From the NCBI GenBank assembly GCA_036400935.1, contig DASWWW010000001.1, positions 46,096 through 110,095 on the forward strand: 64,000 nt of DNA. The letters run 5' to 3'. This stretch comes from Minisyncoccota bacterium (lineage in GTDB: Bacteria > Patescibacteriota > Minisyncoccia > Phycocordibacterales > UBA6065). The notes under the pieces are model-generated. The model was given only the letters and a program-made list of their open reading frames with translations, had not been told where the DNA came from and searched no databases. Shown piece by piece: positions 3,300 through 20,948 of this stretch. A program made the position numbers and the translations under genes. Position 1 is the stretch's first letter. The number at the start of each line of letters is the position of its first letter.

Positions 3300-4796
3300 C
3301 TACTTTACGCCGTGCTTTCCGCGTATCTTTGCTATCTCGTCCTCCTCCGCCTTCATTTTCTTGTCCTTCCCTACTGCCGCGCGCTTTTTGAGGTCCTCGT
3401 CTGGCAGTTTCATAAGCTCCAAAGTCTGTCCTTCTAGATATTCGGCCGTGTTGAGTTTTGGATTTTCCAATACTTCTTCAAGAAGAGCATTCAGAATAAG
3501 ACCGATCTTTGGATTTGGAGGCATTTTGCTCACTTCCATGATTTTCTTGCCGTCTATTTTGAGCATTCCTACGGAGATCGGGTCGCGGAGGGCTTCTTCA
3601 ATCATGGCTTTGTATTTGCGTAGTCGATATGGATTCTCCTTTGGTCGGCCGGTGCCGATACGATCGCAGATGCGGACGTTCATAAGATTCCAGATGTGCT
3701 CCTTCCCTACGTTGGCGACCATACGACGTACGGCCGAGAGCGTTATTTGTTCCGTGTCCGAGAAAAACATGTGCCAACGAACGAGTTTCACGACGTTTTC
3801 GACAGTTTTTGTTGGGAAATTGAGGTTTCTTAGGATCTTTTCGGTCATTCGGGCGCCAACCACCTCGTGTCCGTAGAACGTGAACTGATTGGTTTCACGT
3901 GAAAAGCGTCGTGTCGCGGGCTTGCCGATGTCATGAAACAGCGCAGCGAGACGGATTTCGAGGGGATATTTCTTGTCTGCCGAATGCTGAAGCGTTCGCA
4001 GCAAATGCTCCCAAACATCGTATGAATGGGCCTGGTTCTGCTCTACGCCGTAGCTTTCCTCCAATTCCCTTGCAATGAACGGGACAATTCCCAATTCACG
4101 GCACATCATAAGGGCATTCATGGGCGTATCGGACATGAGAATGCGTACAAATTCGTCTCGGACACGCTCCTTGGCTATATGGGCCAAAAGCGGCGCATGG
4201 GTTTTGAGGGCCTCCAGAGTACCCTTTTCTATCGCAAAGCCCAGTTCGGCCGCAATACGGATGGCACGCATAATGCGCAAGGCGTCCTCGGAGAGGCGCT
4301 CGTGAGCGTCTCCAACCGTTCGTATAAGGCCGTCTTTGATGTCTGTTTGCCCGTTAAACAGGTCGATCATGTTTCCTGTGAAACTTCCCTCTCGTTCATC
4401 CTCAAGCTTCAATGCCAGGGCGTTTATCGTGAAATCGCGCCGCTTGAGATCGTCCTCAATGTTCTTGCTAAAGGACACAGCATCTGGACGTCGCTTGTCT
4501 GTATATGCTGATTCGAGTCGGAATGGGGTTACTTCGACCGTCTTGAGCCTTTCATCAGTAGCGAGATCGTTTACCACGCCGACCGTGCCGTATGAGTTTT
4601 CGTAGAACGTGTGCGGAAACACGGCAATGATCTGTTCGGGAGTCGCATCGGTCGTAACATCCCAGTCCTTTGGCTCCCTGCCGATTATGAGATCTCGGAC
4701 GCAGCCGCCTACCAGATATGCTTTAAAACCCTTATTTTCGAGGGTTTTCGTTACTTGTGAAACTTCAACGGGAACGATAAATGAAGCTTTTGCCAT
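3300..4796 (-). CDS. cca: CCA-adding tRNA nucleotidyltransferase / poly(A) polymerase family with HD domain and C-terminal extension
   Basis: GGCVRDLIIGREPKDWDVTT (PolyA_pol head), HD motif AALFHDIGKP, long Lys/Glu-rich C-terminal tail. Confidence 0.8.
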   Translation of the reverse strand: MAKASFIVPVEVSQVTKTLENKGFKAYLVGGCVRDLIIGREPKDWDVTTDATPEQIIAVFPHTFYENSYGTVGVVNDLATDERLKTVEVTPFRLESAYTDKRRPDAVSFSKNIEDDLKRRDFTINALALKLEDEREGSFTGNMIDLFNGQTDIKDGLIRTVGDAHERLSEDALRIMRAIRIAAELGFAIEKGTLEALKTHAPLLAHIAKERVRDEFVRILMSDTPMNALMMCRELGIVPFIARELEESYGVEQNQAHSYDVWEHLLRTLQHSADKKYPLEIRLAALFHDIGKPATRRFSRETNQFTFYGHEVVGARMTEKILRNLNFPTKTVENVVKLVRWHMFFSDTEQITLSAVRRMVANVGKEHIWNLMNVRICDRIGTGRPKENPYRLRKYKAMIEEALRDPISVGMLKIDGKKIMEVSKMPPNPKIGLILNALLEEVLENPKLNTAEYLEGQTLELMKLPDEDLKKRAAVGKDKKMKAEEDEIAKIRGKHGVK

Positions 4797-4833
4797 ATTT
4801 TAGTGGGACTAAACCCTATTTTAGACCGACAAG

Positions 4834-4908
4834 TGGTGCTCCCGGAGGGATTCGAACCCCCAACAACGGTTCCGAAGACCGGTATGATATCCATTTCACT
4901 ACGGGAGC
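4834..4908 (-). tRNA. tRNA-Arg (anticodon TCG), CCA encoded
   Basis: Hand-folded from revcomp: acceptor GCTCCCG/CGGGAGC, D stem GTGA/TCAT, anticodon arm CCGGT-CTTCGGA-ACCGT, T loop TTCGAAT, discriminator A, CCA. Confidence 0.7.
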
Positions 4909-4998
4909 GCTGACTTATCATACGCGAAACTCAATATAAATCAAAAGATTTCAAAAAAACTTTGAGTTTATATCGGTTTAGTGTATATTAATTCCACT

Positions 4999-5069
4999 GC
5001 GGGTATCGTTTAGTGGTAGGACACGTCCTTGCCAAGGATGAGGTGAGAGTTCGATTCTCTCTACCCGCA
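4999..5069 (+). tRNA. tRNA-Gly (anticodon GCC)
   Basis: Acceptor GCGGGTA/TACCCGC, anticodon loop TTGCCAA, T loop TTCGATT. Confidence 0.8.
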
Positions 5070-5079
5070 CAGGTAAACA

Positions 5080-5112
5080 AAAGCGCCCTTCTCTCGGGCG
5101 CTTTTGTTTTGT
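5080..5112 (+). terminator. rho-independent terminator after tRNA-Gly(GCC)
   Basis: aaaagcgcccttctctcgggcgcttttgtttt hairpin plus T-run. Confidence 0.5.
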
Positions 5113-5445
5113 CTAAAGGTATTGTGACGGACCAATTGTCTTAGACATTACAATTCTTTTTTATCAAATATTCCTTTAGACCTTGAGATAAATTTTTTAT
5201 AAAACGGCGTCAGATAAGGATTTTTGTACAAACTGTGGATAACTCTGGGGATAGTGTTTAAAAGACAGGTCTTTTTAAGGGCGGGTTTTCATGTCTTTTG
5301 TCCTTATAACCGCTTAACTGAGCCATTCTTCTGAAACCACGGTTCACTAACACAGAAATCCACAGTTTTGTTACATATGTAACATAATAATTGGTTTCAT
5401 GTGAAATTGATCTGTTATTTATGATTGCTTTATCTATGTTTTGCC

Positions 5446-5835
5446 ATGATTATGGCTATGAAAAGATTTACCTCAGCAAAACAAAAGATTGGTGAAAGGG
5501 GCGAGGCAATGGTTTGTATGCATCTTGAAAAACAGGATTACACGATCATTGAGCGCAATTTCACAAGAAAATGCGGAGAAATAGACATAATTGCTGGCAA
5601 GAATGGAATTACACACTTTATTGAGGTGAAGAGCGTTACACGTGAAAGCCAGTTCGGCCGACCGGAAGATAATATGCATAGTTTCAAGCAAAGGAAGTTC
5701 GCTCGAACGGTTAGGATGTATCTGGCATATAGGAAAGTAGGGCAATGGCAGTGCGATCTGGCTTGTGTCCTTTTGAATGACAAGGAGCGTAAGGCGGAAA
5801 TACGCATGATTCTGGATATAATCCTCGAAAATTAG
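5446..5835 (+). CDS. YraN family (UPF0102) endonuclease-like protein
   Basis: GERGEAMVCMHLEKQDYTIIERNF...GEIDIIAGKNGITHFIEVKS matches the UPF0102 restriction-endonuclease-like fold pattern; start uncertain (5446 or 5458). Confidence 0.6.
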   Translation: MIMAMKRFTSAKQKIGERGEAMVCMHLEKQDYTIIERNFTRKCGEIDIIAGKNGITHFIEVKSVTRESQFGRPEDNMHSFKQRKFARTVRMYLAYRKVGQWQCDLACVLLNDKERKAEIRMILDIILEN

Positions 5836-5880
5836 ATTTTTACCGACATTGTGCTAGTATGTGAAAGCTCACAAGAGTTT

Positions 5881-5953
5881 CGGGGCGTGGTGTAACGGCT
5901 AACATGCTTCACTTGGGATGAAGTGACTCCGGGTTCGAATCCCGGCGCCCCGA
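5881..5953 (+). tRNA. tRNA-Pro (anticodon TGG)
   Basis: C1:G72 acceptor (CGGGGCG/CGCCCCG), anticodon loop CTTGGGA, T loop TTCGAAT. Confidence 0.8.
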
Positions 5954-5956
5954 CAA

Positions 5957-5990
5957 AATGAAAAACCGCACATGTGCGGTTTTTCATTTT
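5957..5990 (+). terminator. rho-independent terminator after tRNA-Pro
   Basis: aaaaaccgcacatgtgcggttttt perfect hairpin. Confidence 0.5.
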
Positions 5991-6148
5991 GTCGGGGCGA
6001 GCGCGTCCAGAGGACGTGCGACCGGGATTCGAAAAGGTTTTCCCATATTTTCGAGCTTTCCAAGCGAGAAAATGGGAAACCTGTACTGGTCCTGTAAGGA
6101 CCGAATCCCGGCCCTGTCTTTTTTCTTTGTTTTGCATAGACTGTATCT

Positions 6149-6472
6149 ATGGACTCCAAAAAATTCACCCGCACTATAGAGGATTTCACGTGCGGCAACT
6201 GCGGCCTTGAGGTGAAGGGCAACGGCTATACCAATCATTGTCCTAAATGCCTCTGGTCAAAGCATGTCGACAAGAATCCCGGGGACAGACTCGAGGAATG
6301 CGGCGGATTGATGAAGCCGATCGCGATCGCCAAGGAGGGAAAAGATTTCGTGATCACTCACAGGTGCCTTCGGTGTGGTTTCGAGCGCCGCAAGAAGGTG
6401 GAGGAGGGCGATGACTTTGATGCGGTTATCAAAATATCGTCAAGCGCGGACGACAGCGCAACAAAAAAGTAG
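6149..6472 (+). CDS. RNHCP domain-containing protein (Cys-cluster zinc-ribbon)
   Basis: FTCGNCG...GYTNHCPKCLWSKHVD...HRCLRCG: the RNHCP motif with paired CxxC ligands. Confidence 0.7.
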   Translation: MDSKKFTRTIEDFTCGNCGLEVKGNGYTNHCPKCLWSKHVDKNPGDRLEECGGLMKPIAIAKEGKDFVITHRCLRCGFERRKKVEEGDDFDAVIKISSSADDSATKK

Positions 6473-6852
6473 AATTGACGGGATTTGCTACTGTGTCGAA
6501 ATTTGTTGGGGGTCTGAAAGAAAATTACCTGCCAATACGCTCCAATAGCCAATATTTCGATCGAGAAAAGTAAACGCGTCGAAAGTCGATTTGTGTCAAA
6601 TTTCTGAGAGTATTTTGACAGTACAAAACGGCTGTATCGCTTCGGTGGCGCGCTGGTGTTCGGGTGTATGCTAAATATACGAAAGAGGGCGAAAGCTTTC
6701 TTTCGGAAAAGATCTTTTACCAAAGATAATAAAAATACACCTATGAAATTCTCAGATCAGCCAAAGCCAGACCAGAAGCCTCGACCAGACCAGAAGCCGC
6801 CACAGCAGTAAACTAATTTATGAAAAACGGCGTCGCGATTGCTCGCGACGCC

Positions 6853-6972
6853 GTTTTTTGCTACTATCGCTTAGCACTAGTAGGGAACAGGCGGCACATA
6901 TGCGGGCGTGGTTTAATGGTAGAACGATTGCCTTCCAAGCAGTACGTCCGGGTTCGATTCCCGGCGCCCGCA
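6853..6972 (+). repeat. copy 1 of a ~120 bp direct repeat (promoter-region sequence plus tRNA-Gly TCC)
   Basis: gttttttgctactatcgcttagcactagtagggaacaggcggcacatatgcgggcg...cccgcac is identical to 11064-11183. Confidence 0.9.
6902..6972 (+). tRNA. tRNA-Gly (anticodon TCC), copy 1, no CCA encoded
   Basis: Acceptor GCGGGCG/CGCCCGC, anticodon arm ATTGC-CTTCCAA-GCAGT, T loop TTCGATT. Confidence 0.8.
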
Positions 6973-7081
6973 CAAACTCAAAAACTCCTATTTTATATGG
7001 CTTTCCAGAGCCGAGGAATTTTTGGTTAGAACCTCATAATAAAAAGAAGTTCCTTGTGAGAAACTTCTTATTGAATGGAGT

Positions 7082-7297
7082 CTAGTCATCCATAAACGGC
7101 CAAATATAATTATTGTTTCCTGCTGCGCCGCCAACCGCCCTTTCCGAGCGTCTGTGGGCTTCAGCACACGGCAGACCGGTTTCATCCATGATTCGTGCCG
7201 TTTCTTCTTGTCTTCTGGTTTCATAAGCCGACATCTGATGTTTGATTAGTTCATCATGACGATCAGCTAAACTTTTTAGTTTTTTCTTTTTTGACAT
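7082..7297 (-). CDS. hypothetical small basic protein (71 aa)
   Basis: ORF only; lies in a locally AT-rich segment immediately 3' of tRNA-Gly copy 1. Confidence 0.3.
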   Translation of the reverse strand: MSKKKKLKSLADRHDELIKHQMSAYETRRQEETARIMDETGLPCAEAHRRSERAVGGAAGNNNYIWPFMDD

Positions 7298-7436
7298 TGT
7301 TAACCTTTCCTAAAGTAATCTACAAAACCTTTTCTTGAACTTTAAGTAAAAAAAGTGAAATTCAAAATAGTGGCTAATACAATAGTTATTTTGTAAAAAA
7401 GTTGACAAAAATATTGTCATAAACAATATTGATAGT

Positions 7437-8225
7437 ATGAAATTACAAAAAGCAGAATTATCTTTTTTAAATCTTTCGAGCTTAGAGGCAAAAATACTGC
7501 AGACTATGTCTCCTGATGTTTCATTTACCGTAAGTGAGCTGTCGAGAGAAATTAAATTTCCAAGGACTTCCGTAGGTTTCACTTTAAATAGGTTAAAGTA
7601 TCGTGGCTTTGTAAAAAAAATTGGGGTTAAGAAACATACGGAATGGCGAGTCATTGCGATTGATTCCTTAGCCTCGAGGCTCCAATCTATTTCTCACCGG
7701 TTAAGTATCGATGAAGATAACAATAGAAGAAACAATTTATTTGTAAAAATCGGCTACGGTCAAGAGGGTTTCAAGAGGGCATATGAAAAGATGCTTCAAA
7801 TCCAATGTGACCGAGTTTACTTTATACAAGGCAATAAAGCGGCAGAAGCTGGTCTAAAAAAGATCAATTTTAGCTACTATGCTGATTTTCATAAAAAATT
7901 ACGGAAAAAAGACATCGTAATGGAGGCAATAGCAGGAGAAAGTATCTTGAAACGTCTAGAAAATCTGAGTAAAGAAGAGATAAGGGCACACAAAGATCGC
8001 CTAATCATTACTTACTTAATACCCGATCAATATATAGATTTCGATGTAGATATAATCATGTTAAATAAGCATCTGATTATTGTAGATCCCGTGAATGAAA
8101 TCTCACTTACAATAAATGAAGCTTCCATTTCGAAAGCTTTCCAGATAATATTTATTGGCCTTGCATCATTGGGAAGAAAATTCGATTTAAATGCTTTTAT
8201 AAGAGGTTCCAATTTCATTCACTAA
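7437..8225 (+). CDS. TrmB-like winged-helix transcriptional regulator (AT-rich, atypical codon usage)
   Basis: N-terminal HTH (LSSLEAKILQTMSPDVSFTVSELSREIKFPRTSVGFTLNRLKYRGFV); the C-terminal domain resembles that of the 18975..19736 protein (AISKAFQIIF vs IADSMRTWFQIIW). Confidence 0.5.
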   Translation: MKLQKAELSFLNLSSLEAKILQTMSPDVSFTVSELSREIKFPRTSVGFTLNRLKYRGFVKKIGVKKHTEWRVIAIDSLASRLQSISHRLSIDEDNNRRNNLFVKIGYGQEGFKRAYEKMLQIQCDRVYFIQGNKAAEAGLKKINFSYYADFHKKLRKKDIVMEAIAGESILKRLENLSKEEIRAHKDRLIITYLIPDQYIDFDVDIIMLNKHLIIVDPVNEISLTINEASISKAFQIIFIGLASLGRKFDLNAFIRGSNFIH

Positions 8226-8242
8226 TCTGCACCAACAAATGA

Positions 8243-8266
8243 AAAATCCCCGGAAGGGGATTTTTC
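8243..8266. terminator. hairpin aaaaatccccggaaggggattttt (also present at 11193-11218)
   Basis: Perfect GC-rich stem flanked by A/T runs; bidirectional terminator shape. Confidence 0.5.
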
Positions 8267-8275
8267 GTTGCGATC

Positions 8276-9058
8276 TTATTTTTTATTGCCACCAATCGTG
8301 CCCCATAGATTCTTGAAAAGCTCGCGCATGTTCTCGGCATAGACAGCGTCATGTATCTCAACCAAATAGTAGGGGTGCTGCTTTGTCATCATGAATACAA
8401 CGTATTCTCCTAGGGCCCATGTTGTTGCGGTGAATTTAAAATCCTCCTTCCAGAATTTGATTTGGCGGCGTTCCAGGTTTCTCGCTTGCATGTTTCGTTC
8501 GACGCTCGAATCATTTGAGATTATCTTTACGTCGAACTGCTGAGGGGCTCTTTTCCAATACCACTCGATCCACTCGAGATGCTCCTTCTTTTCAACCATC
8601 GTATGGTCTTGGAATCCCCACCACGTGAGATCTTTTGTTGCAGCCATGCTCGATTCCCAGATCGGCGTCTGGCTATAAAGAAAATCAGTCATGTTGTGCT
8701 CCTCGATGAATCGCATCTTGGGTACCGAATAGGATTTCGATTTAGGCACGCTCTCAAGCTTCGTCACGAGCTCTTGGGCTATTTTCCTTTTTTCCGAAAG
8801 CGCTCTTTCCTCGACTTGGAGCGCTTTCTCAAGATGCTCGAGGGGTAGGGCGACAAAATAGCCGTTTGGGCCATGTATGTCTTCAGCCATAACGCCCCTT
8901 TTGATGAGCTCTTTGCCGACGGAATACACGGTAGGTCTCTTGATATTGGTCAGGGAGGCGATTGCGGCGGGCGCTATTTTGCCATTTTCTAGTACGGTCA
9001 GATATACCTGAATCTCCTTATCGGTAAAGCCAAGTTTTTTGAGTAATTCATCGATCAT
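8276..9058 (-). CDS. TrmB family transcriptional regulator
   Basis: N-terminal TrmB HTH (FTDKEIQVYLTVLENGKIAPAAIASLTNIKRPTVYSVGKELIKRGV); C-terminal domain paralogous to the 13961..14758 protein (WWGFQDH conserved). Confidence 0.65.
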   Translation of the reverse strand: MIDELLKKLGFTDKEIQVYLTVLENGKIAPAAIASLTNIKRPTVYSVGKELIKRGVMAEDIHGPNGYFVALPLEHLEKALQVEERALSEKRKIAQELVTKLESVPKSKSYSVPKMRFIEEHNMTDFLYSQTPIWESSMAATKDLTWWGFQDHTMVEKKEHLEWIEWYWKRAPQQFDVKIISNDSSVERNMQARNLERRQIKFWKEDFKFTATTWALGEYVVFMMTKQHPYYLVEIHDAVYAENMRELFKNLWGTIGGNKK

Positions 9059-9337
9059 GGCTCTAGTATAACCAATCTCTAATTGTTGTCAATGTTAAAT
9101 CAACAGATAAATACCTTTATCTTATATAGATTATATCGATTTATCTAAATAAATCGTTGATTTTAAATTGACAATTAATAAAAACTGTGCAATACTTATA
9201 TAAGAAAGTAAAGTTCATTACATTGCGTTGGTTATGGAAACGGGCCCTATCTAGATATCGGCCCGACTCCGTAACCAATGCGACTGATAAGCTCCCTTCT
9301 TGGGATGACACGGTTGCTGAGGTGAGGAACATACGCC

Positions 9338-10090
9338 ATGAGTACCACTGATACAAGTGCTGGTGCGAAAAACGACGGACGGTTCGCTCACACGCTCGGG
9401 GAGGAGTACGAGTTGCTACTGAAATCGATGCCTCATTATAGCGAGGTTCAGTGGAGGATCGGCCAGATCATTGGGAAAAGGTTTGAGGGCAAACCCGTTT
9501 CTAAGGTCAAGGTCCTTGAAATCGGCTGCGGTACCGGTATCACTACGCGGGCGATTCTCGGGTGCGATGTGAGGACGGAGATCTGGGCTGTCGACAACGA
9601 GAAGGTGATGCTCGAGCAGGCAAGGGCCATGGTAAAGGGTCTGCGCGCCCAAAGCCGTGTTCATTTCGAGCAGCACGACATCTTGGTCTTCCTCGGGACG
9701 GTTCCGGATAGCTACTTCGATGTCGTCGCTTCTGCCTGGGTGCTCCATAACTTCGAGAATGGTTTACGTGAGGAAATCATGAAAGAAATCTATCGGGTGC
9801 TCAAGCCGGGAGGGCTTTTCGTGAACGGCGACAAGTATGCCCACGACGATCTCGCCGAGCGGGCATCGAGGCTCGCTGAGCAGATCCGACGCTTTGACGT
9901 CTACGATGGCATGGGCCGCTCGGACTACAAGGCGGAGTGGATCGCTCACTACGTGCAGGACGAGCGTCCGGAAGTGATCTGGATCGAAGGTGAGGCGAAG
10001 AAGCAGATGCACCGGCTCGGCTTCGAGATGGTTGGTCCGATTTATCGCTGCCTCATGGAGGCCGTGATGGTCGGGACCAAGCCGGTCTGA
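9338..10090 (+). CDS. class I SAM-dependent methyltransferase
   Basis: Motif I VLEIGCGTGITT; post-I acidic residue; VLKPGGLFVNGD motif. Confidence 0.7.
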   Translation: MSTTDTSAGAKNDGRFAHTLGEEYELLLKSMPHYSEVQWRIGQIIGKRFEGKPVSKVKVLEIGCGTGITTRAILGCDVRTEIWAVDNEKVMLEQARAMVKGLRAQSRVHFEQHDILVFLGTVPDSYFDVVASAWVLHNFENGLREEIMKEIYRVLKPGGLFVNGDKYAHDDLAERASRLAEQIRRFDVYDGMGRSDYKAEWIAHYVQDERPEVIWIEGEAKKQMHRLGFEMVGPIYRCLMEAVMVGTKPV

Positions 10091-10225
10091 GCTTATCAGG
10101 AGAGTTGGAAGACTCATTAAAACTTTCAGCCTGCATCTCGATCGATGCAGGTTCCTACGAGGCTTACGACGCAAGTGCGTCGCGGGTCTCCAGGAATAGG
10201 ACATTGAAATATTTCAGCTTTCTCT

Positions 10226-10975
10226 ATGAAAACGACACTGCTGCTAGTTGCTATCGCATCAGTCGCGCTCCTTTCGAGCGGGACTTCCGCTTCGGAGTCA
10301 AAAGGACCGAGCGTTACCGTAGGGACTTTGATTACTAACAAGTATCTGGCCTCGGGGACAGGCTCGACGCTGAGTCGGGATCCAGCGCTCCAGTCGGATC
10401 TATTCGTTATGTTTCCAAATGGCTTCTACGTAGATCTCTGGAATTCCAGAAGCCTTCGCGGCTCATGGGATGACGGAAGCCTTGGCAACGAGGTGGACTA
10501 CAGCGTTGGCTGGAAGGGCGCGGTTGCTGAGGGCGCAAGTCTGAACGTTGCCACGTCCTACTTCGACGAGCCGAGGGCTTTCGATCTTGGTAAAGGCGAC
10601 ATTCTCTATACACGCGCGTTTCTGACCAAGGGCTTCAAGCTCTTGCCTGTCACGATCGGGTATGAGAACTATGTCGCTATGCCTAGCTCGGGTTTCCGCG
10701 GCGGGAGCCTGGTTAGCCTGGGCTCGGGCAAGTCTTGGTCTGGGATCGAGAGCAAGATCTCGGCGCGCGTCTCGGCTGCTGCGGTGTATGACTTCGGCAC
10801 GCTAGGCACTTCGAGCGGAGTGATATTTCGAGGCGGCGCAGGCATTGACTGGAAAGCCTCGAAGCGTCTGACCGTCAATCTGATTGGAGCGAATTGGTTT
10901 GTTCCGGTAACTCCTCGGGATAAGCGATCATCAGACGTCGCTTTCTCTACTGGCGTTACGTGGAGTGTGAAATAG
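10226..10975 (+). CDS. secreted beta-rich protein of unknown function (signal peptide), paralog of 14891..15628
   Basis: MKTTLLLVAIASVALLSSGTSASE signal peptide; Gly/Ser/Tyr/Trp-rich alternating pattern; same length class and position in module as the 14891 gene. Confidence 0.5.
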   Translation: MKTTLLLVAIASVALLSSGTSASESKGPSVTVGTLITNKYLASGTGSTLSRDPALQSDLFVMFPNGFYVDLWNSRSLRGSWDDGSLGNEVDYSVGWKGAVAEGASLNVATSYFDEPRAFDLGKGDILYTRAFLTKGFKLLPVTIGYENYVAMPSSGFRGGSLVSLGSGKSWSGIESKISARVSAAAVYDFGTLGTSSGVIFRGGAGIDWKASKRLTVNLIGANWFVPVTPRDKRSSDVAFSTGVTWSVK

Positions 10976-11042
10976 TCGCTTTGTCAGATTCAAGCCCGCA
11001 TCATGAAAATGATGTGGGTTTTTATTTTGCTATGTGACAAAT

Positions 11043-11070
11043 AAAAAACCGCCCAGTGAGCGGTTTTTTT
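11043..11070. terminator. hairpin aaaaaaccgcccagtgagcggttttttt (near-identical copy at 11721-11751)
   Basis: Perfect stem with symmetric A/T runs; bidirectional. Confidence 0.5.
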
Positions 11071-11183
11071 GCTACTATCGCTTAGCACTAGTAGGGAACA
11101 GGCGGCACATATGCGGGCGTGGTTTAATGGTAGAACGATTGCCTTCCAAGCAGTACGTCCGGGTTCGATTCCCGGCGCCCGCA
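11064..11183 (+). repeat. copy 2 of the ~120 bp tRNA-Gly-containing direct repeat
   Basis: Identical to 6853-6972. Confidence 0.9.
11113..11183 (+). tRNA. tRNA-Gly (anticodon TCC), copy 2, followed by encoded CCA (11184-11186)
   Basis: Sequence identical to copy 1; 3' context gcaCCAacaa differs from copy 1 (gcacaaactc). Confidence 0.8.
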
Positions 11184-11192
11184 CCAACAAAT

Positions 11193-11218
11193 GGAAAATC
11201 CCCGGAAGGGGATTTTTC
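11193..11218. terminator. hairpin ggaaaatccccggaaggggatttttc (second copy)
   Basis: Identical stem-loop to 8243-8266. Confidence 0.5.
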
Positions 11219-11231
11219 ATTGCCAGCATTG

Positions 11232-11693
11232 CTAGACTTCCTCGTATTCAAACCCGATCATTTTCGTATCTTCCTCATTATAGAAAGCCTTTGCCTTGAT
11301 TCTCTTTCCCTTAAGCACAAGCTCGAGCCAGGCCCTATCTGAGTCCCACATCTTGTCGAAAGGAACCGCATCGAACGCGAACCAACGGGGAAGCGCCATC
11401 TCTTCTGTCTCGATAAAATCGCCTCGCCACGCGCGGACAAAGAATACGTGGCATTCGAATGTCGCTACGCCGCCTTTGGAAAAGCTAATAGTCGCCACCT
11501 TTTCTAGATCCTGCTCGTTCGCGGATATACCGCTTTCCTCATTGAGCTCGCGCATCGCAGCCGCCTCGACCCTTTCGCCCGTCTGGACCTTGCCTCCATA
11601 TCCGTTTAGACGCCCTGCGCCATGCCCGCGCCGCTTCTCGGAAAGCAGTATTTGACCGTCTTTGACAGGGAATACGATGGTGGCGACTTTCAT
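11232..11693 (-). CDS. NUDIX hydrolase (MutT-like)
   Basis: Nudix box GYGGKVQTGERVEAAAMRELNEESGI. Confidence 0.75.
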   Translation of the reverse strand: MKVATIVFPVKDGQILLSEKRRGHGAGRLNGYGGKVQTGERVEAAAMRELNEESGISANEQDLEKVATISFSKGGVATFECHVFFVRAWRGDFIETEEMALPRWFAFDAVPFDKMWDSDRAWLELVLKGKRIKAKAFYNEEDTKMIGFEYEEV

Positions 11694-11720
11694 GAGCTAA
11701 GTATAGCCCAGGTACCTGCA

Positions 11721-11751
11721 GCAAAAAACCGCCCAGTGGGCGGTTTTTTGC
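11721..11751. terminator. hairpin gcaaaaaaccgcccagtgggcggttttttgc
   Basis: Near-identical to 11043-11070 (tgag vs tggg loop); sits between the convergent NUDIX and HU genes. Confidence 0.5.
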
Positions 11752-11765
11752 AATTCTGATCAGAA

Positions 11766-12038
11766 TTATTTGACTGAGTCCTTGAGAGCCTTAGCTGCTC
11801 GGAACTTAGGAACCTTCATAGCTGGGACCGAGATGGTCTCGCCGGTTCGAGGATTTCGTGCCTGTCGAGCCTTTCGCATCTTCACTGAGAAGATACCGAG
11901 GCCTGCGATAGAAACTTCATCGCCCTTCTTGAGGCCTGCGACGATAGAGTCGAAAACCTTGTCGACTACCTGCTCTGCCTGTACCTTCGTTGTATTAAGA
12001 ACTCCGTGTACTGCTTCTACGATTGCTGCTTTGTTCAT
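11766..12038 (-). CDS. hup: DNA-binding protein HU
   Basis: MNKAAIVEAV...GDEVSIAGLGIFSVKMRKARQARNPRTGETISVPAMKVPKFRAAKALKD; full HU/IHF fold signature. Confidence 0.85.
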   Translation of the reverse strand: MNKAAIVEAVHGVLNTTKVQAEQVVDKVFDSIVAGLKKGDEVSIAGLGIFSVKMRKARQARNPRTGETISVPAMKVPKFRAAKALKDSVK

Positions 12039-12247
12039 GATATGGAAATTACCTTTAATAATACGAACTTACTTGCGCTGGATTTTCATCGAGCGCTTTC
12101 CACTCGGTAGTCGAGGGGTTGGTCTATATAGATTATATAAGAAGCCATTTTTTAGGCAAATAGCGAAAATATGGCTCTGTTGACAACTGTGGATAAGAAA
12201 AAAGTAGAAATAATAAAACGGCTCTGTTGAGCCGTTTTATTAGGTAT

Positions 12248-13777
12248 CTATCGGGCGAATTCCGTAATCCTATTTTCCCGAATTAGCGTGACTTTAATTT
12301 CTCCTGGGTACTTTAGATCCTGCTCTATCTTTTCAGCTACGGCGCGCGCCATGTTCTTTGCTTCGATATCCGAAACCTGATCTGGCTTCACAAAAATGCG
12401 GATTTCGCGACCGGCCTGGAGGGCGTACGCCTTCTCGACGCCGCTCATTCCCGTGGCGATTGCCTCCAAATCCTGCAATCGCTTGATGTAGTTCTCGACG
12501 CTGTCGTGTCGGGCTCCTGGTCGGGCTCCAGATATGGCGTCCGCCACCTGAACGATGATGGATTCGACGGTTTCGTACGGATATTCGTCGTGATGGGCCT
12601 GCATGGCCTTGATTATGGCCTCATCCGCGCCGAATTTCTGCAAAATACGGCGTCCGATCTCGACATGGGAGCCCTGAACCTCGTGGTCGAGGGCCTTTCC
12701 GATGTCGTGAACGAGGGCTCCGGCCTTTGCTACGGCCACATTTGCGCCCAATTCCTCGGCAATCATGCCTGCGACGTGCGCCATCTCAACGGAATGCTGC
12801 AAAACGTTCTGTCCATACGATGTTCGGAAGTAGAGGCGGCCTAAAATGGCTATGATTCGTGGATCGAGATTCATAACGCCCACTTCGTAGGCTGCCTGCT
12901 CGCCCTTTTCCTTGATTACTCTATTTATGTCCTCGCGAGCCTTCTCTACGAGCTTTTCGATCTTTGCTGGCTGTATGCGGCCATCTTTTATGAGCTCCTC
13001 GAGGGCCATTCGGGCGATCTGGCGGCGGATAGGGTCGAATGACGACAATATAATGGTGCCCGGGGTGTCGTCGACGATGACTTCTACGCCGGTAACTCGC
13101 TCAAAGCTCTTGATATTTCGGCCTTCCTTGCCGATGATCTTGCCCTTGATCTCGTCAGAGGCGATCGTGATAGAGGTGGAAAAAATATCAGAACCTACGG
13201 CGTTTCCGAGGCGGTGTATAGCGGTCGCGAGGATATCCTTGGCGCGGGCCTCGATCTTGTCCTGGTTGGCGCGCTCCAATTTCTGCATGCGCACGAGCAA
13301 ATCGTCGCTATACTTGTTCTCGGTTGTCTTTATGATCTCTTCTTTGGCCTGCTCCTGAGTGAGGCGGGCTGTTGTTTCGAGGGCATTCTGCCTGTCGGCA
13401 AGGAGCTTGTCGGCGCGCTCCTTGATAGAGCGGATTTCAGCGGCCTTGGCCTTGATGGATTCGACTTCGGAATCGAGGTCTGCCTGGCGTTTTTCGAGGG
13501 AATCCTCCTTCTTTATGAGGCGATCCTCGATTGCCTTTGCCTTTTCCTCCTTTTCTTTGACCTCCTGGCGCAATTCCTTCATCGTATCGGCGGCTTTCTG
13601 TTCCGCGTCGAGGACGATTTTCTTGGCCTGCTCTTCGGCGGTCAGAAGGGCGTGCTTGAGGTCTGTTTCGATAGATCGCTTCTTTGCGAGCGCGATCAAA
13701 AGACGCGCCCAATATCCAAGGGCCGCGCCTCCGATCATGGTCGCCGTAGCGAGCAAGAGGGCGTATATAAGTGACAT
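12248..13777 (-). CDS. rny: ribonuclease Y
   Basis: N-terminal TM, coiled coil, KH domain (IIGKEGRNIKSFERVTGVEVIVDD), HD domain (HSVEMAHVAGMIAEELG...VHDIGKA). Confidence 0.9.
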   Translation of the reverse strand: MSLIYALLLATATMIGGAALGYWARLLIALAKKRSIETDLKHALLTAEEQAKKIVLDAEQKAADTMKELRQEVKEKEEKAKAIEDRLIKKEDSLEKRQADLDSEVESIKAKAAEIRSIKERADKLLADRQNALETTARLTQEQAKEEIIKTTENKYSDDLLVRMQKLERANQDKIEARAKDILATAIHRLGNAVGSDIFSTSITIASDEIKGKIIGKEGRNIKSFERVTGVEVIVDDTPGTIILSSFDPIRRQIARMALEELIKDGRIQPAKIEKLVEKAREDINRVIKEKGEQAAYEVGVMNLDPRIIAILGRLYFRTSYGQNVLQHSVEMAHVAGMIAEELGANVAVAKAGALVHDIGKALDHEVQGSHVEIGRRILQKFGADEAIIKAMQAHHDEYPYETVESIIVQVADAISGARPGARHDSVENYIKRLQDLEAIATGMSGVEKAYALQAGREIRIFVKPDQVSDIEAKNMARAVAEKIEQDLKYPGEIKVTLIRENRITEFAR

Positions 13778-13960
13778 ATTTTTATAAAGCCGTCAGCTTT
13801 TAGGGTCTGTGTTGGGCGAAAGAGATTGAGAGATTTCTGAGTCGAAGGGAGGAGGAAAGGGGCGTCCAAGAGATCGTTGATGCGTCCGGCCGGAAATTAA
13901 AGGGGTAACGATTTCATACTACATACAAAGCGGGGGAGTGGCAAGGGTAAGCTGTCGGGC

Positions 13961-14758
13961 CTATGCGATTTTGCTCCCGGCCGAGGATTCGGTGAGCGAC
14001 CACAGCTTCTTGAAGACCTCACGCATGTTGTGGGCGAGCGTCACGTCGTGAATCTCTACCAGGTAGAAAGGGTGCTGCCTGGTTACTGCCATGACAAGAT
14101 AGTCGCCCGCGACCCACACGCTCGATGTGAAATTCATGCCGGGGAGGAAGCGTATGTCGCGCTTTTCTCGCGAAAGCGTGCGCTTCATCTTGTTCTCGAT
14201 GGGCGATATGTTGCTCAGCAGGTGGGCCTTTACTCGGGGGTCCTGATACTGCTTCTGATTCCATACCCACCTGATCCATTCCTCGTAATTCTCGACGAGG
14301 CTGTGATCCTGAAAGCCCCACCAGGTGAAGTCGATTGAGGATATGGCGTCTTGCCACTTGTGAAAATTTTCATAGAGGAAATTCTTGAGGCCGCTTTCCT
14401 CCACGAATCTGATTTTCGGCACGGGATACTCCTTTTCTGCCGTGACGACGCTGAGCTCGTCTATGAGCTTCTTTATAAGCGACTCCTTTTCCTCGAGCTC
14501 GCGGCGCGGCTTCTCGATTATCTGCTTGAGGCTTTCGAGGGGCAGGGGGCTTAGGTACAAGGTCTTTCCGCCCAAGTCTTCGGCAATGATCCCTTTGGTA
14601 AGCAGGCTGCGCGCGATATTGTAGACGGTTGGCCTGCTGATGCCGCAGATTTTGGATAGGGAGGTGGGGGTCATGCGCCCCTTCTTTATAAGGGCGAGAT
14701 AGACTTTTATTTCTTTAGCGTTGAGGCCGATATCGGCGAGTTTCTCATTTAGTGACAT
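13961..14758 (-). CDS. TrmB family transcriptional regulator, paralog of 8276..9058
   Basis: Start moved to MSLNEKLADIGL (14758) by analogy with the paralog; HTH LSKICGISRPTVYNIARSLLTKGI; shared C-terminal motif FTWWGFQDHSLVENYEEWIRWVW. Confidence 0.6.
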   Translation of the reverse strand: MSLNEKLADIGLNAKEIKVYLALIKKGRMTPTSLSKICGISRPTVYNIARSLLTKGIIAEDLGGKTLYLSPLPLESLKQIIEKPRRELEEKESLIKKLIDELSVVTAEKEYPVPKIRFVEESGLKNFLYENFHKWQDAISSIDFTWWGFQDHSLVENYEEWIRWVWNQKQYQDPRVKAHLLSNISPIENKMKRTLSREKRDIRFLPGMNFTSSVWVAGDYLVMAVTRQHPFYLVEIHDVTLAHNMREVFKKLWSLTESSAGSKIA

Positions 14759-14890
14759 AAATGCAGGATATTCTGTTGTCAGAGTTTTGTCAACAAAAGT
14801 CATACAAAAATTGACAATAATGGGGATATCGCTAGGGTTAATAGTTGAAACGTTCGTTCGGCAACCTTGAAAATTCAATATGGGCTTACT

Positions 14891-15628
14891 ATGAAATACC
14901 TGGTGCTTATCCTTAGTCTCACGCTCTGCGTATCCCGGCTGCAGGCCGCAGATTCCAAAATGTCCTGGTCGCTTACGACCAGCGTACTGTCTCAATATAT
15001 CGGGGAGGGCGGTAGCGTCTTTTCCGAAGATCCCGAGCTCATCACGGATCTAATCGCCTTTAAGGGCGACTGGTATGCGGGCTTGTGGGTAGCCACGGGC
15101 CTTAAGGGCGGTTCATATACCAAATCCTACGCCAATGATTACGATCCGTATGTCGGCTGGGCGCGCGCTTTCGGCCCGGTTAAGTACGAAATTACGGCGA
15201 TTTATTTCGCAATCAGCGATCTGCGGCTTATCCGCGACGATATCTGGGTCTTGGATCAGAAAGTCAGCTTTTCGAAATGTCCTGTCGTCCAGCCGTATAT
15301 AAAGGTGCGTTCCGCCTTTGAGATAGGCTCGAAAAGTTTCGAACGCGGGATGTTCGTCTGGGCGGGAATCGGCAAGTCCATCGCCTTGGGCGAATCAAAG
15401 CTGAGTCTCGACCTATCAACCGCGTATTCGGATGGGGCCTACGGAAAAGACTCGGGATGGATATTCGGCCGGGCATATGCCGGTCTGACTATGCCGCTGT
15501 CCAAGAATCTCTCCGTCATGCCCTCGTTCATGTATCAGGTCCCGGCTTCGGGCCAAAAGGGAAACCCTCGCGGGTTTACGAATGGCAATGAAGTCGTCGC
15601 CGGCATATCGATCACTCGCAAGTTCTGA
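14891..15628 (+). CDS. secreted beta-rich protein of unknown function, paralog of 10226..10975
   Basis: Signal peptide MKYLVLILSLTLCVSRLQAADS; similar Gly/Tyr/Trp-rich composition and length. Confidence 0.5.
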   Translation: MKYLVLILSLTLCVSRLQAADSKMSWSLTTSVLSQYIGEGGSVFSEDPELITDLIAFKGDWYAGLWVATGLKGGSYTKSYANDYDPYVGWARAFGPVKYEITAIYFAISDLRLIRDDIWVLDQKVSFSKCPVVQPYIKVRSAFEIGSKSFERGMFVWAGIGKSIALGESKLSLDLSTAYSDGAYGKDSGWIFGRAYAGLTMPLSKNLSVMPSFMYQVPASGQKGNPRGFTNGNEVVAGISITRKF

Positions 15629-15632
15629 CGCC

Positions 15633-16334
15633 ATGCATAACTTACCTCCAGCAGAAATCTATGAGCAGGAGTTCCGTTACATGTCGTGGGGAAAGCTCGT
15701 CGCACAGGTGGCAAAGCGCATCGTCAAAGATGTTCCGCGCGGAGGCAGCGTTCTCGACCTGTGCTGCGGTCCCGGCTACCTCCTCGGGCAGATAAAAAAT
15801 GATCGCCCGGACATTCGTTGCGTCGGCGTCGATCTCGATTCTGAGTTCATCGCTCATGCCCGAAAGCGTTACCCGTCGATAGACTTCGAGATAGGGGACG
15901 TGCTCGCTTGGGATGCAACAGAAAAGTTTGACGCGATCGCTTGCACCGCGGGAGTGCATCATATCCCTCTCGAGAGTCAGGAGAAATTCATCGCGCGCAT
16001 GTCGACCTTTTTTAAGGAAGGCGGCGACATGAAAAGCTTCGCAATTGTCGGCGACCCGTATATCGGCGATTACGAGACCGAGTCGGAGAGGCAGCTCGCG
16101 TCCCTGGAACTCGGTTGCGAGTATCTCGCGGAAGCGATCCGCAACAGCGCGCCGCCGGACGTGGTGAAAGCGGGAATCGGCATCCTGGAGAACGACCTGC
16201 TTCTCGTCGAATGGAAGACGTCGGTCAGAAAGCAGATCGCATGCTTCAGGAGGCACTTCGCCGTCGTCGAAGAGAATCACGTGTGGCCGATAGGGAAGAA
16301 TTTAGGCGACTACTATTTCGTCCTCGGTCGCTGA
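15633..16334 (+). CDS. class I SAM-dependent methyltransferase, second copy in the duplicated module
   Basis: VLDLCCGPGYLLG (motif I), VGVDLDSEF (post-I), FDAIACTAGVHHI; start set at MHNLPP just after the upstream stop. Confidence 0.6.
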   Translation: MHNLPPAEIYEQEFRYMSWGKLVAQVAKRIVKDVPRGGSVLDLCCGPGYLLGQIKNDRPDIRCVGVDLDSEFIAHARKRYPSIDFEIGDVLAWDATEKFDAIACTAGVHHIPLESQEKFIARMSTFFKEGGDMKSFAIVGDPYIGDYETESERQLASLELGCEYLAEAIRNSAPPDVVKAGIGILENDLLLVEWKTSVRKQIACFRRHFAVVEENHVWPIGKNLGDYYFVLGR

Positions 16335-16345
16335 AGCTCCAAAGC

Positions 16346-16379
16346 AAAACCGATCACTCGCAAGAGGATCGGTTTTTTT
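16346..16379. terminator. bidirectional rho-independent terminator between MTase and clpP
   Basis: aaaaccgatcactcgcaagaggatcggttttttt. Confidence 0.5.
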
Positions 16380-16398
16380 CTTTTCTATTTTTTCGAGA

Positions 16399-16977
16399 CT
16401 AGCTGAGTACCTTGTCGACGATGCCGTACTTCTTTGCCTCCTCCGCATCGAGGAAGAAGTCTCGGTCGACATCCTTCTCGATCTGGGCAAGCGGCTTGCC
16501 GGTGTTGTCCGAGAGAATCTTGTTCAGTCGCTCGCGCGTCTTCAGGATGTGCTTCGCGGTGATCGCGATATCGGCCGCCTGGCCCTCGACTCCTCCGAGC
16601 GGCTGATGGATCATGACCTCGGCGTTCGGGAGGACGTATCGCTTTCCTTTTTCTCCCGCAGAGAGAATAACCGCACCCATCGACGCCGCCATTCCAACGC
16701 AGACGGTCGACACGTCGTTCTTCACGTGATTCATCGTATCGATGATCGCGAGTCCCGCGGTAACCGATCCGCCTGGTGAGTTCACGTAGAGCGAGATGTC
16801 TTTTTTAGAATCTTCCGACTGGAGGAAGAGGAGCTGCGCGATCACGGTGTTCGCAACCGCGTCGTCGATCGGGCCTGAGAGGAAGATGATGTTTTCCTTG
16901 AGGAGGCGCGAGTAGATATCATAAGCGCGCTCGCCCATGGTTGTTTTCTCGATGACGGTTGGGATGAGTATAGACAT
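16399..16977 (-). CDS. clpP: ATP-dependent Clp protease proteolytic subunit
   Basis: [10 protein letters not shown]...[17 protein letters not shown]...[14 protein letters not shown]...MIHQPLGG; catalytic Ser-His-Asp context. Confidence 0.9.
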
Positions 16978-17106
16978 ACGTGTTGTGATTAAGGTTTCGA
17001 TAATTGCCCGCGACTGAGGGATAGCGAAACAATATACAAAAAGGCAGGGAAGCGCAATACGGGCGGGCGTGTTTCTTTTTCTGAGAAACTGCCTATACTG
17101 TTACAC

Positions 17107-17802
17107 ATGAGGTTACACCGTTTTTTTCTCACATCAAATATTTCTAAAGGAAAGATAAATTCTTTCTCAAGCCCCTCTCTCACGCACCAGTTGAGCCACG
17201 TTTTTAGGTTGCACGCCGGGGATACCGTCGTATTCTTCGATGGTACGGGCACGGATTACACCTGCGAGATTGTTTCACTCGAGAAGGCCGATGTGATGTT
17301 CCGCGTCGTTGAAACGTCGACCGTGAAACCGCTCTCTGAAACGAAATTGGCCTTGGCGGTCTCCCTTATCAAGAAGGACAACTTCGAATGGATCATTCAG
17401 AAGGGGACCGAGCTCGGCGTATCTGAGTTCATCCCCCTCATCTCTGAGCGCAGCGAGAAGAAGGGTTTCAACATGGAGCGAGCGAACAAGATTATGACCG
17501 AGGCGCTCGAGCAGTCCGGCCGAAGCGACATGGCGGTCGTGCGCGAGCCGATCGCCCTTGCCGATTTTCTCGAGAGTGAAAAGCGTCCGATCACGACGCT
17601 TCATCTGAGCGGCGAGTCTTTCAAGAATGAATTAGCGATCGCGGGAGAGATCGTCCTCTGTATCGGACCTGAGGGCGGATGGTCGGATAAGGAGATCGGC
17701 ATGTTCAAGGAAAAAGGAGCGTCCGTTATCAAACTCAATTCGCCCGTGTTGCGAGCCGAGACTGCGGCAGTCGCAGCGGCAACTTTGTTTCTTGTCCGTT
17801 AA
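17107..17802 (+). CDS. rsmE: 16S rRNA (uracil1498-N3)-methyltransferase
   Basis: C-terminal SPOUT motifs CIGPEGGWSDKEI and LNSPVLRAETAAVAAATL. Confidence 0.8.
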   Translation: MRLHRFFLTSNISKGKINSFSSPSLTHQLSHVFRLHAGDTVVFFDGTGTDYTCEIVSLEKADVMFRVVETSTVKPLSETKLALAVSLIKKDNFEWIIQKGTELGVSEFIPLISERSEKKGFNMERANKIMTEALEQSGRSDMAVVREPIALADFLESEKRPITTLHLSGESFKNELAIAGEIVLCIGPEGGWSDKEIGMFKEKGASVIKLNSPVLRAETAAVAAATLFLVR

Positions 17803-17899
17803 GATCTGTCCTTTAGATAAATTATTTCTAAAGAAAAAATAAAATATTTCTAAAACAAAAAGCTCCGCGATGCGGAGCTTTTTGTTTTCAGTATTTTGA

Positions 17900-18925: not shown

Positions 18926-18974
18926 ATGTGGATATATGATGTGGAAGCAGTCTAGCCGGAAAGGTGCGGTTTGT

Positions 18975-19736: not shown

Positions 19737-19829
19737 ATATTTATGTGGTACATATTACCACCATATGGCCATATATGCCACTCAAACAGTAATATATAGC
19801 TTGAGTTGGTCGGGATAATCTTTTAATCC

Positions 19830-20894: not shown

Positions 20895-20895
20895 C

Positions 20896-20932: not shown

Positions 20933-20948
20933 AATCTTGCTTTGAATA

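Follow-up and report, generated by a model that had tools for sequence, protein, structure and literature searches.

The 64,000-nucleotide stretch analysed here (the window; contig DASWWW010000001.1 of the Minisyncoccota bacterium assembly GCA_036400935.1, positions 46,096 to 110,095) carries, next to the gene of the HU protein, a tRNA-Gly(TCC) gene in two copies, the first of which is followed by an AT-rich insert, designated island A. The best reading of the locus is that two alternative alleles of the region between tRNA-Gly(TCC) and HU stand in tandem, joined within a microhomology of 9–10 nucleotides (nt), GTTTTTTGC(T). As to its origin, the locus is on balance probably a composite islet that formed without an integrase, in at least two recombination events anchored on the tRNA and closed at microhomologies. 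Relatives were collected with RNase Y (12248–13777) as the anchor, by which 67 loci were fetched from species-representative genomes, and further relatives were found via contigs encoding an identical HU protein; single loci are cited below by their L numbers.

The order RNase Y, HU and tRNA-Gly(TCC) is kept in about 50 related Paceibacteria species, with a single copy of the tRNA at every related locus examined. In the closer relatives the genes beyond the tRNA (RNHCP, tRNA-Pro, UPF0102, tRNA-Gly(GCC), tRNA-Arg and the CCA-adding enzyme) are conserved in order as well, and in the window, as in every relative, the left flank of tRNA copy 1 keeps synteny with the RNHCP gene. HU and tRNA-Gly(TCC) are convergent, and the gap between them spans 62 to 4,964 bp. 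Its cargo includes a PIG-L deacetylase in L004, a trypsin-like protease in L021, L033 and L051 (alongside an MscS channel in L033), several TrmB-like genes and, by sequence inspection, genes that look like a desaturase, transporters and a RarA-like ATPase. Near-empty sites with a gap of only 62–79 bp are present in L005, L029, L030, L034, L060, L068 and L079 (69 bp in L079), the short gap of L005 consisting of the shared terminator and nothing else. Since cargo and gap size vary in this manner and no integrase was seen in any relative's gap inspected, the tRNA-Gly(TCC)–HU gap is a flexible hot spot throughout the clade, empty alleles included.

In the window the tRNA and its upstream region form an exact direct repeat of 120 nt, each copy of which comprises 48 nt of a putative promoter region and the complete tRNA-Gly(TCC), as called by ARAGORN and Rfam. 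An earlier reading made from the letters alone (the sequence-only reading) had recognized this duplication correctly, with coordinates one base too low. The repeat and its flanks are arranged as follows.

6823–6858, + strand: term1, terminator hairpin upstream of tRNA copy 1 (perfect 16-nt inverted repeat)
6854–6973, + strand: repeat copy 1, 48-nt upstream region plus tRNA-Gly(TCC) at 6902–6973, no encoded CCA
8229–8271, + strand: displaced native tRNA 3' flank (GCA+CCA, ACAAATG, terminator hairpin), 41 of 43 positions identical to 11181–11223
11065–11184, + strand: repeat copy 2, upstream region plus tRNA-Gly(TCC); the tRNA with its encoded CCA is 11113–11186
11181–11223, + strand: native 3' flank and terminator hairpin of copy 2 (terminator scan and repeat comparison)

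Copy 1 is a complete tRNA (Rfam 70.4 bits) that ends with GCCCGCAC and runs into unrelated sequence, AAACTC. Copy 2 continues, as the sequence-only reading had stated, with CCA, then ACAAATGG and a hairpin built of AAAATCCCC, GGAA and GGGGATTTT (AAAATCCCCGGAAGGGGATTTT, 11195–11216). The tRNA end and hairpin that were said to reappear behind the insert are indeed present there and read GCACCAACAAATG plus the hairpin, their start being 8229 and not 8233. The type of flank matches that of L003, L072 and L076, and an allele free of island A would read the tRNA joined directly to GCACCAACAAATGAAAAATCCCC. The two mismatches between the hairpin flanks lie on opposite stem arms, and each copy stays paired via one wobble pair.

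The left edge of the repeat is the T-run and GCT of term1. In L003 and L004 a terminator hairpin followed by a conserved block, TTTTTTG(C/T)TACTATCG, occupies the same place upstream of the tRNA, which is itself 100% identical in the window, L003 and L004. Because the 48-nt upstream region varies between species (window, L003, L004) and yet is identical in both copies of the window, the two upstream-plus-tRNA copies would appear to share one lineage or population, or to have been homogenised later. Although tRNA copy 1 has no encoded CCA, it is probably still functional, because the CCA is missing from five of the nine tRNAs in the window and a CCA-adding enzyme is encoded at 3300–4796. Three Logan unitigs match the window exactly (5970–6883, 6944–11094 and 11155–22038), breaking 30 nt inside the repeat as k=31 predicts, and the one at 6944–11094 is recorded in 12 samples. 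From these exact matches it follows that the junctions between tRNA and insert and between the HU terminator copy and the tRNA upstream region are real DNA, independent of one assembly; the 120-nt repeat exceeds k, so that the unitigs cannot separate the integrated from the excised state. A search of JGI metagenome DNA with a 35-nt pattern of upstream region plus tRNA gave 0 matches and no strain-level alleles.

Between the displaced flank and the HU gene the window holds two sets of cargo, cassette B and cassette N, with copy 2 of the repeat in between.

8276–9058, − strand: TrmB2, TrmB-like regulator of 260 aa (PF01978), first gene of cassette B
9338–10090, + strand: methyltransferase dependent on S-adenosylmethionine (SAM), 250 aa (Methyltransf_25/11/31), cassette B; 64% identical to the L076 gene
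10226–10975, + strand: Gcw_chp-like protein of 249 aa (weak PF09694 match below cut-off), cassette B; 71% identical to the L076 gene
10992–11021, + strand: terminator hairpin of the Gcw-like gene (terminator scan); homologous hairpin in L076
11043–11069, unstranded: HUterm', HU terminator copy joined to the beginning of repeat copy 2; 96% identical to 11723–11749
11232–11693, − strand: NUDIX hydrolase of 153 aa (PF00293), cassette N
11721–11751, unstranded: real bidirectional HU terminator (inverted repeat)
11766–12038, − strand: HU, 90 aa, conserved right border of the hot spot; protein 100% identical in L003, L072, L075, L076 and L079

Each half of this arrangement occurs singly in a relative. 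L072 (JGI 3300001199), whose RNase Y is 86% identical to that of the window, has tRNA-Gly, the palindromic hairpin, a NUDIX gene (62% identical), the HU terminator and HU, which is the context of copy 2. L076 (Logan SRR23479351), with an identical HU protein and HU DNA 87% identical to the window, has the tRNA 3' end, the palindromic hairpin, a small open reading frame (ORF), TrmB2 (68%) and the methyltransferase, and continues with the Gcw-like gene, the Gcw terminator, the HU terminator and HU; it carries neither NUDIX nor tRNA between the Gcw-like gene and HU. At the point where L076 has HU, the window has HUterm' leading into the tRNA upstream region. The HU terminator of L076, L072 and L003 reads CGGTTTTTTGCT followed by TTCG, and the start of the tRNA upstream region reads CCGTTTTTTGCT followed by ACTATCG, the string GTTTTTTGCT being common to both; the HU terminator of the window itself shares 9 nt, GTTTTTTGC, with the upstream start. 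Since L076 and L072 each hold one half and HUterm' precedes copy 2, the window is best read as a tandem of two alternative alleles joined in this microhomology. The older segmental duplication that the sequence-only reading had assumed was therefore not a plain one.

Cassette B is native in its composition, with a guanine plus cytosine (GC) content of 0.506. Its TrmB2 is 68% identical to the L076 gene, 62% to an L007 gene and 40% to a paralogue at 13961–14995 (TrmB3), and the Gcw-like gene also has a paralogue (14867–15628; match at E 2e-15). Together with a SAM-methyltransferase these paralogues form a second trio at 13961–16334, across the RNase Y–HU pair from the genes at 8276–10975. The TrmB-like gene is divergent from the other two in both trios, the order of the last two genes differing between them. 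In L007 the pair of TrmB2 and methyltransferase sits at the other position, on the side of the trio at 13961–16334.

Island A directly follows tRNA copy 1 and separates it from its native flank.

6974–8228, unstranded: island A, AT-rich insert of 1,255 bp, flanked by GCAC (6970–6973 and 8229–8232)
6998–7023, + strand: terminator-like hairpin with T-run, 25 nt past tRNA copy 1 (terminator scan); stands in for the native hairpin
7044–7069, − strand: terminator-like hairpin after o71 (terminator scan)
7082–7297, − strand: o71, Lys-rich protein of 71 aa; GC at third codon positions (GC3) 0.375 (z = −2.4)
7402–7419, + strand: operator-like palindrome TTGACAAAAATATTGTCA upstream of TrmBins (promoter scan), putative function
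7437–8225, + strand: TrmBins, TrmB/TrmBL2-like DNA-binding protein of 262 aa (PF01978 at residues 8–66)

With a GC content of 0.347 against a window mean of 0.521 (standard deviation 0.040, 1,251-bp windows), island A is the lowest-GC window of that size in the 64 kb. The AT-rich segment of about 1.26 kb that the sequence-only reading had placed after copy 1, with its 71-aa ORF and its TrmB-like gene of atypical codon use, thus proved a compositional outlier on windowed computation, and the GC3 of TrmBins (0.319, z = −3.0) is the lowest of 63 genes. Island A is absent from L003, L004, L072 and L076, where the series of tRNA, CCA, (A/C)ATG and hairpin is uninterrupted; near-empty sites exist as well, so that the segment is not universal among relatives. 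No second copy was found in the window, and none in 80 related loci apart from the scar in L007 described below.

For o71 a single homologue was found, P0152, with 72% identity, and there was no Pfam, PHROG or PADLOC match. As 26 of 50 identical residues use different codons in the two genes and the nucleotide identity is just 64%, the comparison argues that o71 is a real gene under purifying selection. TrmBins, which is full length by alignment with its homologues, scores 33.3 bits with PF01978, above the cut-off of 25.6, and its AlphaFold model has a mean confidence (pLDDT) of 93.2. Foldseek aligned this model over its full length with the TrmBL2 structures 5bqt, 5bpd and 5box (E 2.4e-10, 256–271 columns) and also with TrmB (3qph, E 1.1e-8); the global template modelling (TM) score is only 0.37–0.40 against the TrmBL2/TrmB structures, which may stem from a different relative placement of the two domains. 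An N-terminal winged helix, a coiled coil with a C-terminal alpha/beta domain and the full-length fold similarity place the protein with TrmB/TrmBL2, so that it is a predicted DNA-binding regulator and not a recombinase. Like archaeal TrmB/TrmBL2 (3qph, 5box, 5bpd, 5bqt) it has the PF01978 winged helix and a matching full-length predicted fold, and its 262 residues equal the length of TrmBL2. Unlike these proteins, to which it is 13–14% identical, it is bacterial, from the Candidate Phyla Radiation (CPR), and accompanied by the conserved gene of a 71-aa protein and by an operator-like palindrome. An exhaustive HMMER search gave a family of 284 cluster representatives, the best with 41% identity; a word-indexed protein search with the 262-aa protein returned itself alone. 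No papers linking TrmB and CPR were found.

The palindrome, TTGACAA-N5-TTGTCA, overlaps a −35-like TTGACA in the control region shared by o71 and TrmBins, and the homologous genes of L083 and L070 are preceded by similar palindromes. In L083 the divergent pair lies between ruvB and yebC, its o69 being 72% and its TrmB-like protein 26% identical to the window's, in a module with a GC content of 0.43 as opposed to 0.51 in the flanks. Because the same divergent pair recurs there, AT-richer than its flanks, o71 and the TrmB-like gene seem to behave as a portable two-gene module.

The ends of island A can be compared with L007 (SMAG_U3078), whose RNase Y is 77% identical to that of the window. The first 57 nt (6976–7032) match the tRNA-Gly(TCC) trailer native to L007 at 84% identity, the hairpin at 6998–7013 included. 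At the other end, the 298-bp tRNA–HU gap of L007 holds GGTTCCAATTTCATTCA, which agrees at 17/17 positions with the final codons of TrmBins and is followed by a stop codon and CTGCACC as in the window; the GC content of this gap is 0.41 as against 0.54 for its locus. Because both ends of island A are present in this AT-richer gap, L007 carries a deleted scar of island A at the same site and with the same two boundaries. The left 60 nt or so of the island are thus a tRNA trailer carried along with the module, as expected from recombination inside or at the tRNA end. In view of its patchy occurrence, island A has apparently either moved between lineages or been lost repeatedly. The sequence-only reading had taken island A for foreign DNA inserted at the tRNA 3' end with a short tRNA remnant. 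Composition, exact site and the GCAC agree with that claim, which has to be amended in that the island was not a one-off arrival, as the scar in L007 indicates, and in that its first 60 nt or so are homologous to a tRNA 3' flank. Likewise, the regulator gene was said to end exactly at the junction; its stop codon (8223–8225) adjoins it, 3 nt before GCAC.

Mobility genes were searched for throughout the cargo. With Pfam, PHROG and PADLOC, none of the ORFs of 6974–11693 showed a domain of an integrase, recombinase or transposase, and with six proteins of the locus PHROG and PADLOC returned only weak winged-helix, generic methyltransferase and NUDIX matches, with no mark of phage or defence. The 262-aa and 71-aa proteins, whose search in mobile-element collections the sequence-only reading had proposed, have no relatives in IMG/VR viral contigs and no meaningful PHROG or PADLOC matches. 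There are no terminal inverted repeats at 6974/8228, and Rfam found only tRNAs and chance matches over 4500–12300. An insertion sequence or a miniature inverted-repeat transposable element was rejected, given the lack of terminal inverted repeats and transposase and the single copy in the window. The TrmB-like protein was rejected as a mobility enzyme, since structure prediction and fold search gave the TrmBL2 fold and no recombinase fold. A tyrosine recombinase (Phage_int_SAM_1 and Phage_integrase; 814–1863, + strand), Xer-like, does lie about 5 kb from the tRNA cluster. Being syntenic in at least 27 related species, across which its identity is 54–92%, it is by sequence comparison a core Xer-like gene and was rejected as an island-borne integrase; a role in trans on island A is possible.

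The composite origin that we favour would have involved two events. In the first, allele B (tRNA, hairpin, TrmB2, methyltransferase, Gcw-like gene and HU terminator) and allele N (tRNA, hairpin, NUDIX and HU terminator) would have been joined head to tail, through a left crossover at homology in or upstream of the tRNA and an illegitimate right join in the 9–10-nt microhomology of the HU terminator and the tRNA-upstream start, with duplication of the 120-nt upstream-plus-tRNA block as the outcome. In the second, the island A module, that is o71 and the regulator of TrmBL2 fold with their one divergent control region, would have been placed right after the last tRNA bases, bringing its own tRNA-trailer terminator and leaving GCAC on both sides, whereby copy 1 would have lost its encoded CCA and native hairpin and kept an intact tRNA body. 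The DNA may have entered from related cells and recombined at the conserved tRNA, which would have served as the anchor of homology, with a join at a microhomology on the far side; the mechanism would be homology-facilitated illegitimate recombination or an equivalent single crossover with a circularised fragment. While the anatomy of the locus, the alleles of relatives and the microhomologies of 4 nt and 9–10 nt can be read off directly, the route by transformation and RecA is one that we infer. Because the 120-nt direct repeats are perfect, RecA-mediated loss of the 4,211-bp segment is expected, and the arrangement would be metastable.

Such a route is plausible because com genes are conserved across CPR and comEC-dependent natural transformation by homologous recombination has been demonstrated in Saccharibacteria (PMC10633639), and because the window encodes a PilB-type ATPase and RecJ. 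Homology-facilitated illegitimate recombination is known from the transformation of Acinetobacter baylyi, Streptococcus pneumoniae and Pseudomonas stutzeri, where the joins lie at microhomologies of 3–10 bp (PMC6382021). The locus resembles these cases in having conserved homology on one side (the tRNA and the upstream block) and a microhomology of this size on the other (GCAC, or GTTTTTTGC(T)), with no need of mobility genes. It differs from them in being known from its footprint alone, the process never having been shown in Paceibacteria, and it differs from independent illegitimate joins in that the same island boundary recurs in L007.

Several points weigh against this origin. The boundaries of island A and the GCAC(C) are the same in the window and L007 despite different right-hand neighbours; a recurring boundary is the kind that a site-specific recombinase would leave, and an illegitimate join at the same base is unexpected unless island A spread through its own flanks or was inherited. 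Direct repeats of 20–34 nt of the tRNA 3' part occur 2.3–3.3 kb downstream in L033, L051 and L021 and look like attL/attR remnants, though second tRNA copies like the intact one of the window, since decayed, would explain them equally well. The 4-nt repeat is by itself weak evidence. The two events may have come in either order, with either allele as the recipient, and L076 may hold more than the one tRNA copy, since its contig ends inside the tRNA palindrome.

The main rival, which we hold to be possible but distinctly the less likely course, is that a tyrosine or serine recombinase, since lost or acting in trans, carried out a site-specific integration at the 3' end of the tRNA; the locus would then be one or two integrative elements now reduced to decayed cargo and attachment (att) remnants. 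An insertion point exactly at the tRNA 3' end with a restored tRNA body is what integration leaves, and the scar in L007 keeps island boundaries and GCAC(C) next to a different right flank. The 20–34-nt tRNA 3' repeats around 2.3–3.3 kb of cargo in L033, L051 and L021 speak for it too, and the reconstructed attP and attB share C-GCAC-AAC (8/10). The repeats in question sit near HU (tRNA at 16101–16174 in L033, 14643–14714 in L051 and 10086–10157 in L021), and the cargo that they bound includes the conserved trypsin-like protease and no integrase. Against integration stand the absence of a recombinase in or beside the variable segments examined, be it in the window or in the relatives' gaps inspected, the status of the nearby tyrosine recombinase as a conserved syntenic core gene, the inner repeat of just 4–5 nt and the lack of relatives of the island A proteins in viral contigs. 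Furthermore, the 120-nt outer repeat, with the whole tRNA and 48 nt upstream, starts in a terminator T-run fused to HUterm', a layout unlike att sites and directly explained by the fusion of alleles. The footprint of an integrated element, as the sequence-only reading had it, is thus only one of two live mechanisms, no recombinase having been found.

The locus was also compared with islands integrated in tRNA genes by tyrosine integrases, such as those of the P4-like type. It shares with them the insertion exactly at the 3' end of an intact tRNA body, a short tRNA-end repeat on the far side, the atypical composition and the presence or absence among relatives (island A), and a site reused in the clade. 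In contrast to them, it has no integrase or excisionase, in particular none encoded beside an att site, and is very small (1.26 kb; 4.2 kb overall). Its inner repeat is also shorter than the tRNA 3' att repeats, which usually far exceed 10 nt, GCAC having 4 nt (5 with the next C in L007). Its outer repeat is an entire tRNA with upstream region fused to a copy of the neighbour gene's terminator, and cassette B, whose composition is not atypical, occurs at this locus as an allele in a related sister lineage. Flexible genomic islets, or replacement hot spots between core genes, are known in many free-living bacteria. As in these, the borders are fixed core genes (tRNA-Gly and HU) and the cargos are many, alternative and made of ordinary accessory genes, with empty alleles; unlike in the usual flexible islets, two alternative alleles stand in tandem with a duplicated tRNA between. 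Overall the locus behaves as a flexible, tRNA-linked islet that lacks two defining marks of an integrase-type island, the integrase and proper att repeats, and it agrees with a footprint of microhomology-assisted recombination.

The remaining explanations have much less in their favour. There is a slim prospect that the extreme 3' ends of tRNA genes in Paceibacteria are targeted by a site-specific insertion that is recombinase-independent or depends on a host enzyme. This would be possibly linked to palindromes that include the acceptor 3' strand; island A would have landed independently at the identical base, with duplication of GCAC, in the window and L007, and Rfam-negative trailer elements of about 100 nt (window, L003, L006, L042) would be small passengers. 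An in-situ tandem duplication of the unit from tRNA to HU terminator at GTTTTTTGC, by slippage or unequal exchange in one ancestor, followed by complementary losses and the later arrival of island A, is very improbable. The duplication junction does lie in direct microhomology between the two ends of the unit, and the upstream-plus-tRNA copies are identical. Yet this course requires an ancestor in which a single unit held both cassette B and NUDIX, and after that two precise deletions, reciprocal to each other; B and NUDIX never occur in one unit among relatives, each being found alone beside HU (L076 and L072), and there are 2 mismatches in the 43 nt of the hairpin flanks, against none in the 120-nt repeat. 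The least probable of all is an artefact of assembly or topology, in which the 4,211-bp unit (repeat copy, island A and cassette B) is a separate circle or a co-occurring strain and the chromosome holds a single tRNA followed by hairpin and NUDIX: unitigs do break at the 120-nt repeat and cannot tell an integrated unit from a circle plus empty site, and one unitig of 4,151 bp is made up of the inter-repeat segment and 30 nt on either side, but the deposited 206-kb contig of the metagenome-assembled genome runs through the repeat in integrated order, the junction of HUterm' and upstream region lies inside one unitig and could not be built by a strain mixture from a 9–10-nt overlap, the 4,211-bp unit has no replication gene, and even a circle would have arisen from this structure by excision.

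Little is understood of gene flow in CPR/Patescibacteria, as their genomes are tiny, recognisable mobile elements few and cultures almost non-existent. The tRNA–HU locus is a compact natural record of accessory gene movement in this group, in which a fixed hot spot, alternative cassettes, an empty allele, a tandem double allele, a scar and integrase-free microhomology joins are found together. It is an ordinary kind of genome plasticity, in Paceibacteria, where such loci are little described. If the tRNA-anchored route is true, natural transformation and not classical mobile elements would shape these flexible regions, and the tRNA–HU gap would offer genetic tools for Paceibacteria a candidate site of neutral insertion.

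Some further features were observed around the tRNA genes of the window and its relatives. A structured element of about 95–110 nt follows directly after a tRNA and its palindromic terminator. It is found in the window after tRNA-Pro (6012–6115, + strand), in L003 on the − strand after tRNA-Gly(TCC), tRNA-Pro and, partially, tRNA-Gly(GCC) (12540–12642, 13563–13675 and 14550–14589, respectively), and in L006 (12125–12228, − strand) and L042 (16218–16320, − strand). RNAalifold on five copies gave 30 pairs, 13 of them with compensatory double changes, and the motifs ATCGAAAAGG and CTGTACTGG are conserved; there was no Rfam match at E≤0.1. It is possibly a small RNA that has not been described before, or else a tRNA-trailer repeat.

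Long palindromes with 27-nt arms, perfect or nearly so, form terminator hairpins at 5946–5999 in the window, at about 12660–12715 in L003, at about 10855–10915 in L072 and at 3577–3636 in L076. The 3' acceptor strand of the tRNA is part of their left arm, so that the trailer holds a copy of the 5' acceptor strand, and such palindromes at tRNA ends break de Bruijn unitigs. They could be fragile sites favouring rearrangement at tRNA 3' ends, and both the structured element and the palindromes may be relevant to the plasticity of tRNA trailers.

In addition, tRNA-Pro(TGG) and tRNA-Gly(TCC) have near-identical T-arm and acceptor 3' sequences, TCCGGGTTCGA(A/T)TCCCGGCGCCC, and similar trailers. The shared stretch (5928–5966 as compared with 6947–6985 and 11158–11196) recurs about 1 kb apart in direct orientation, and the similarity is a possible substrate for trailer swapping. 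The structured element stands after tRNA-Pro in the window and after tRNA-Gly in L003.

A short Pro/Lys-rich ORF at 6656–6811, with an 18-nt tandem repeat at 6767–6802, lies just upstream of the terminator that precedes tRNA-Gly(TCC). Its C-terminal part (6745–6811, MKFSDQPKPDQKPRPDQKPPQQ) is followed to the same place in L003 (about 12873–12941), L004 and L005 (about 12293–12367), where the ORF is conserved. Finally, in the tRNA-Gly–HU gap of L003, the closest relative, ARAGORN called an odd 78-nt tRNA-Tyr(GTA) at 12440–12517 (corresponding to 10700–10777 in L073); neither the window nor the other relatives have it, and it is perhaps a pseudo-tRNA or a tRNA-like fragment.

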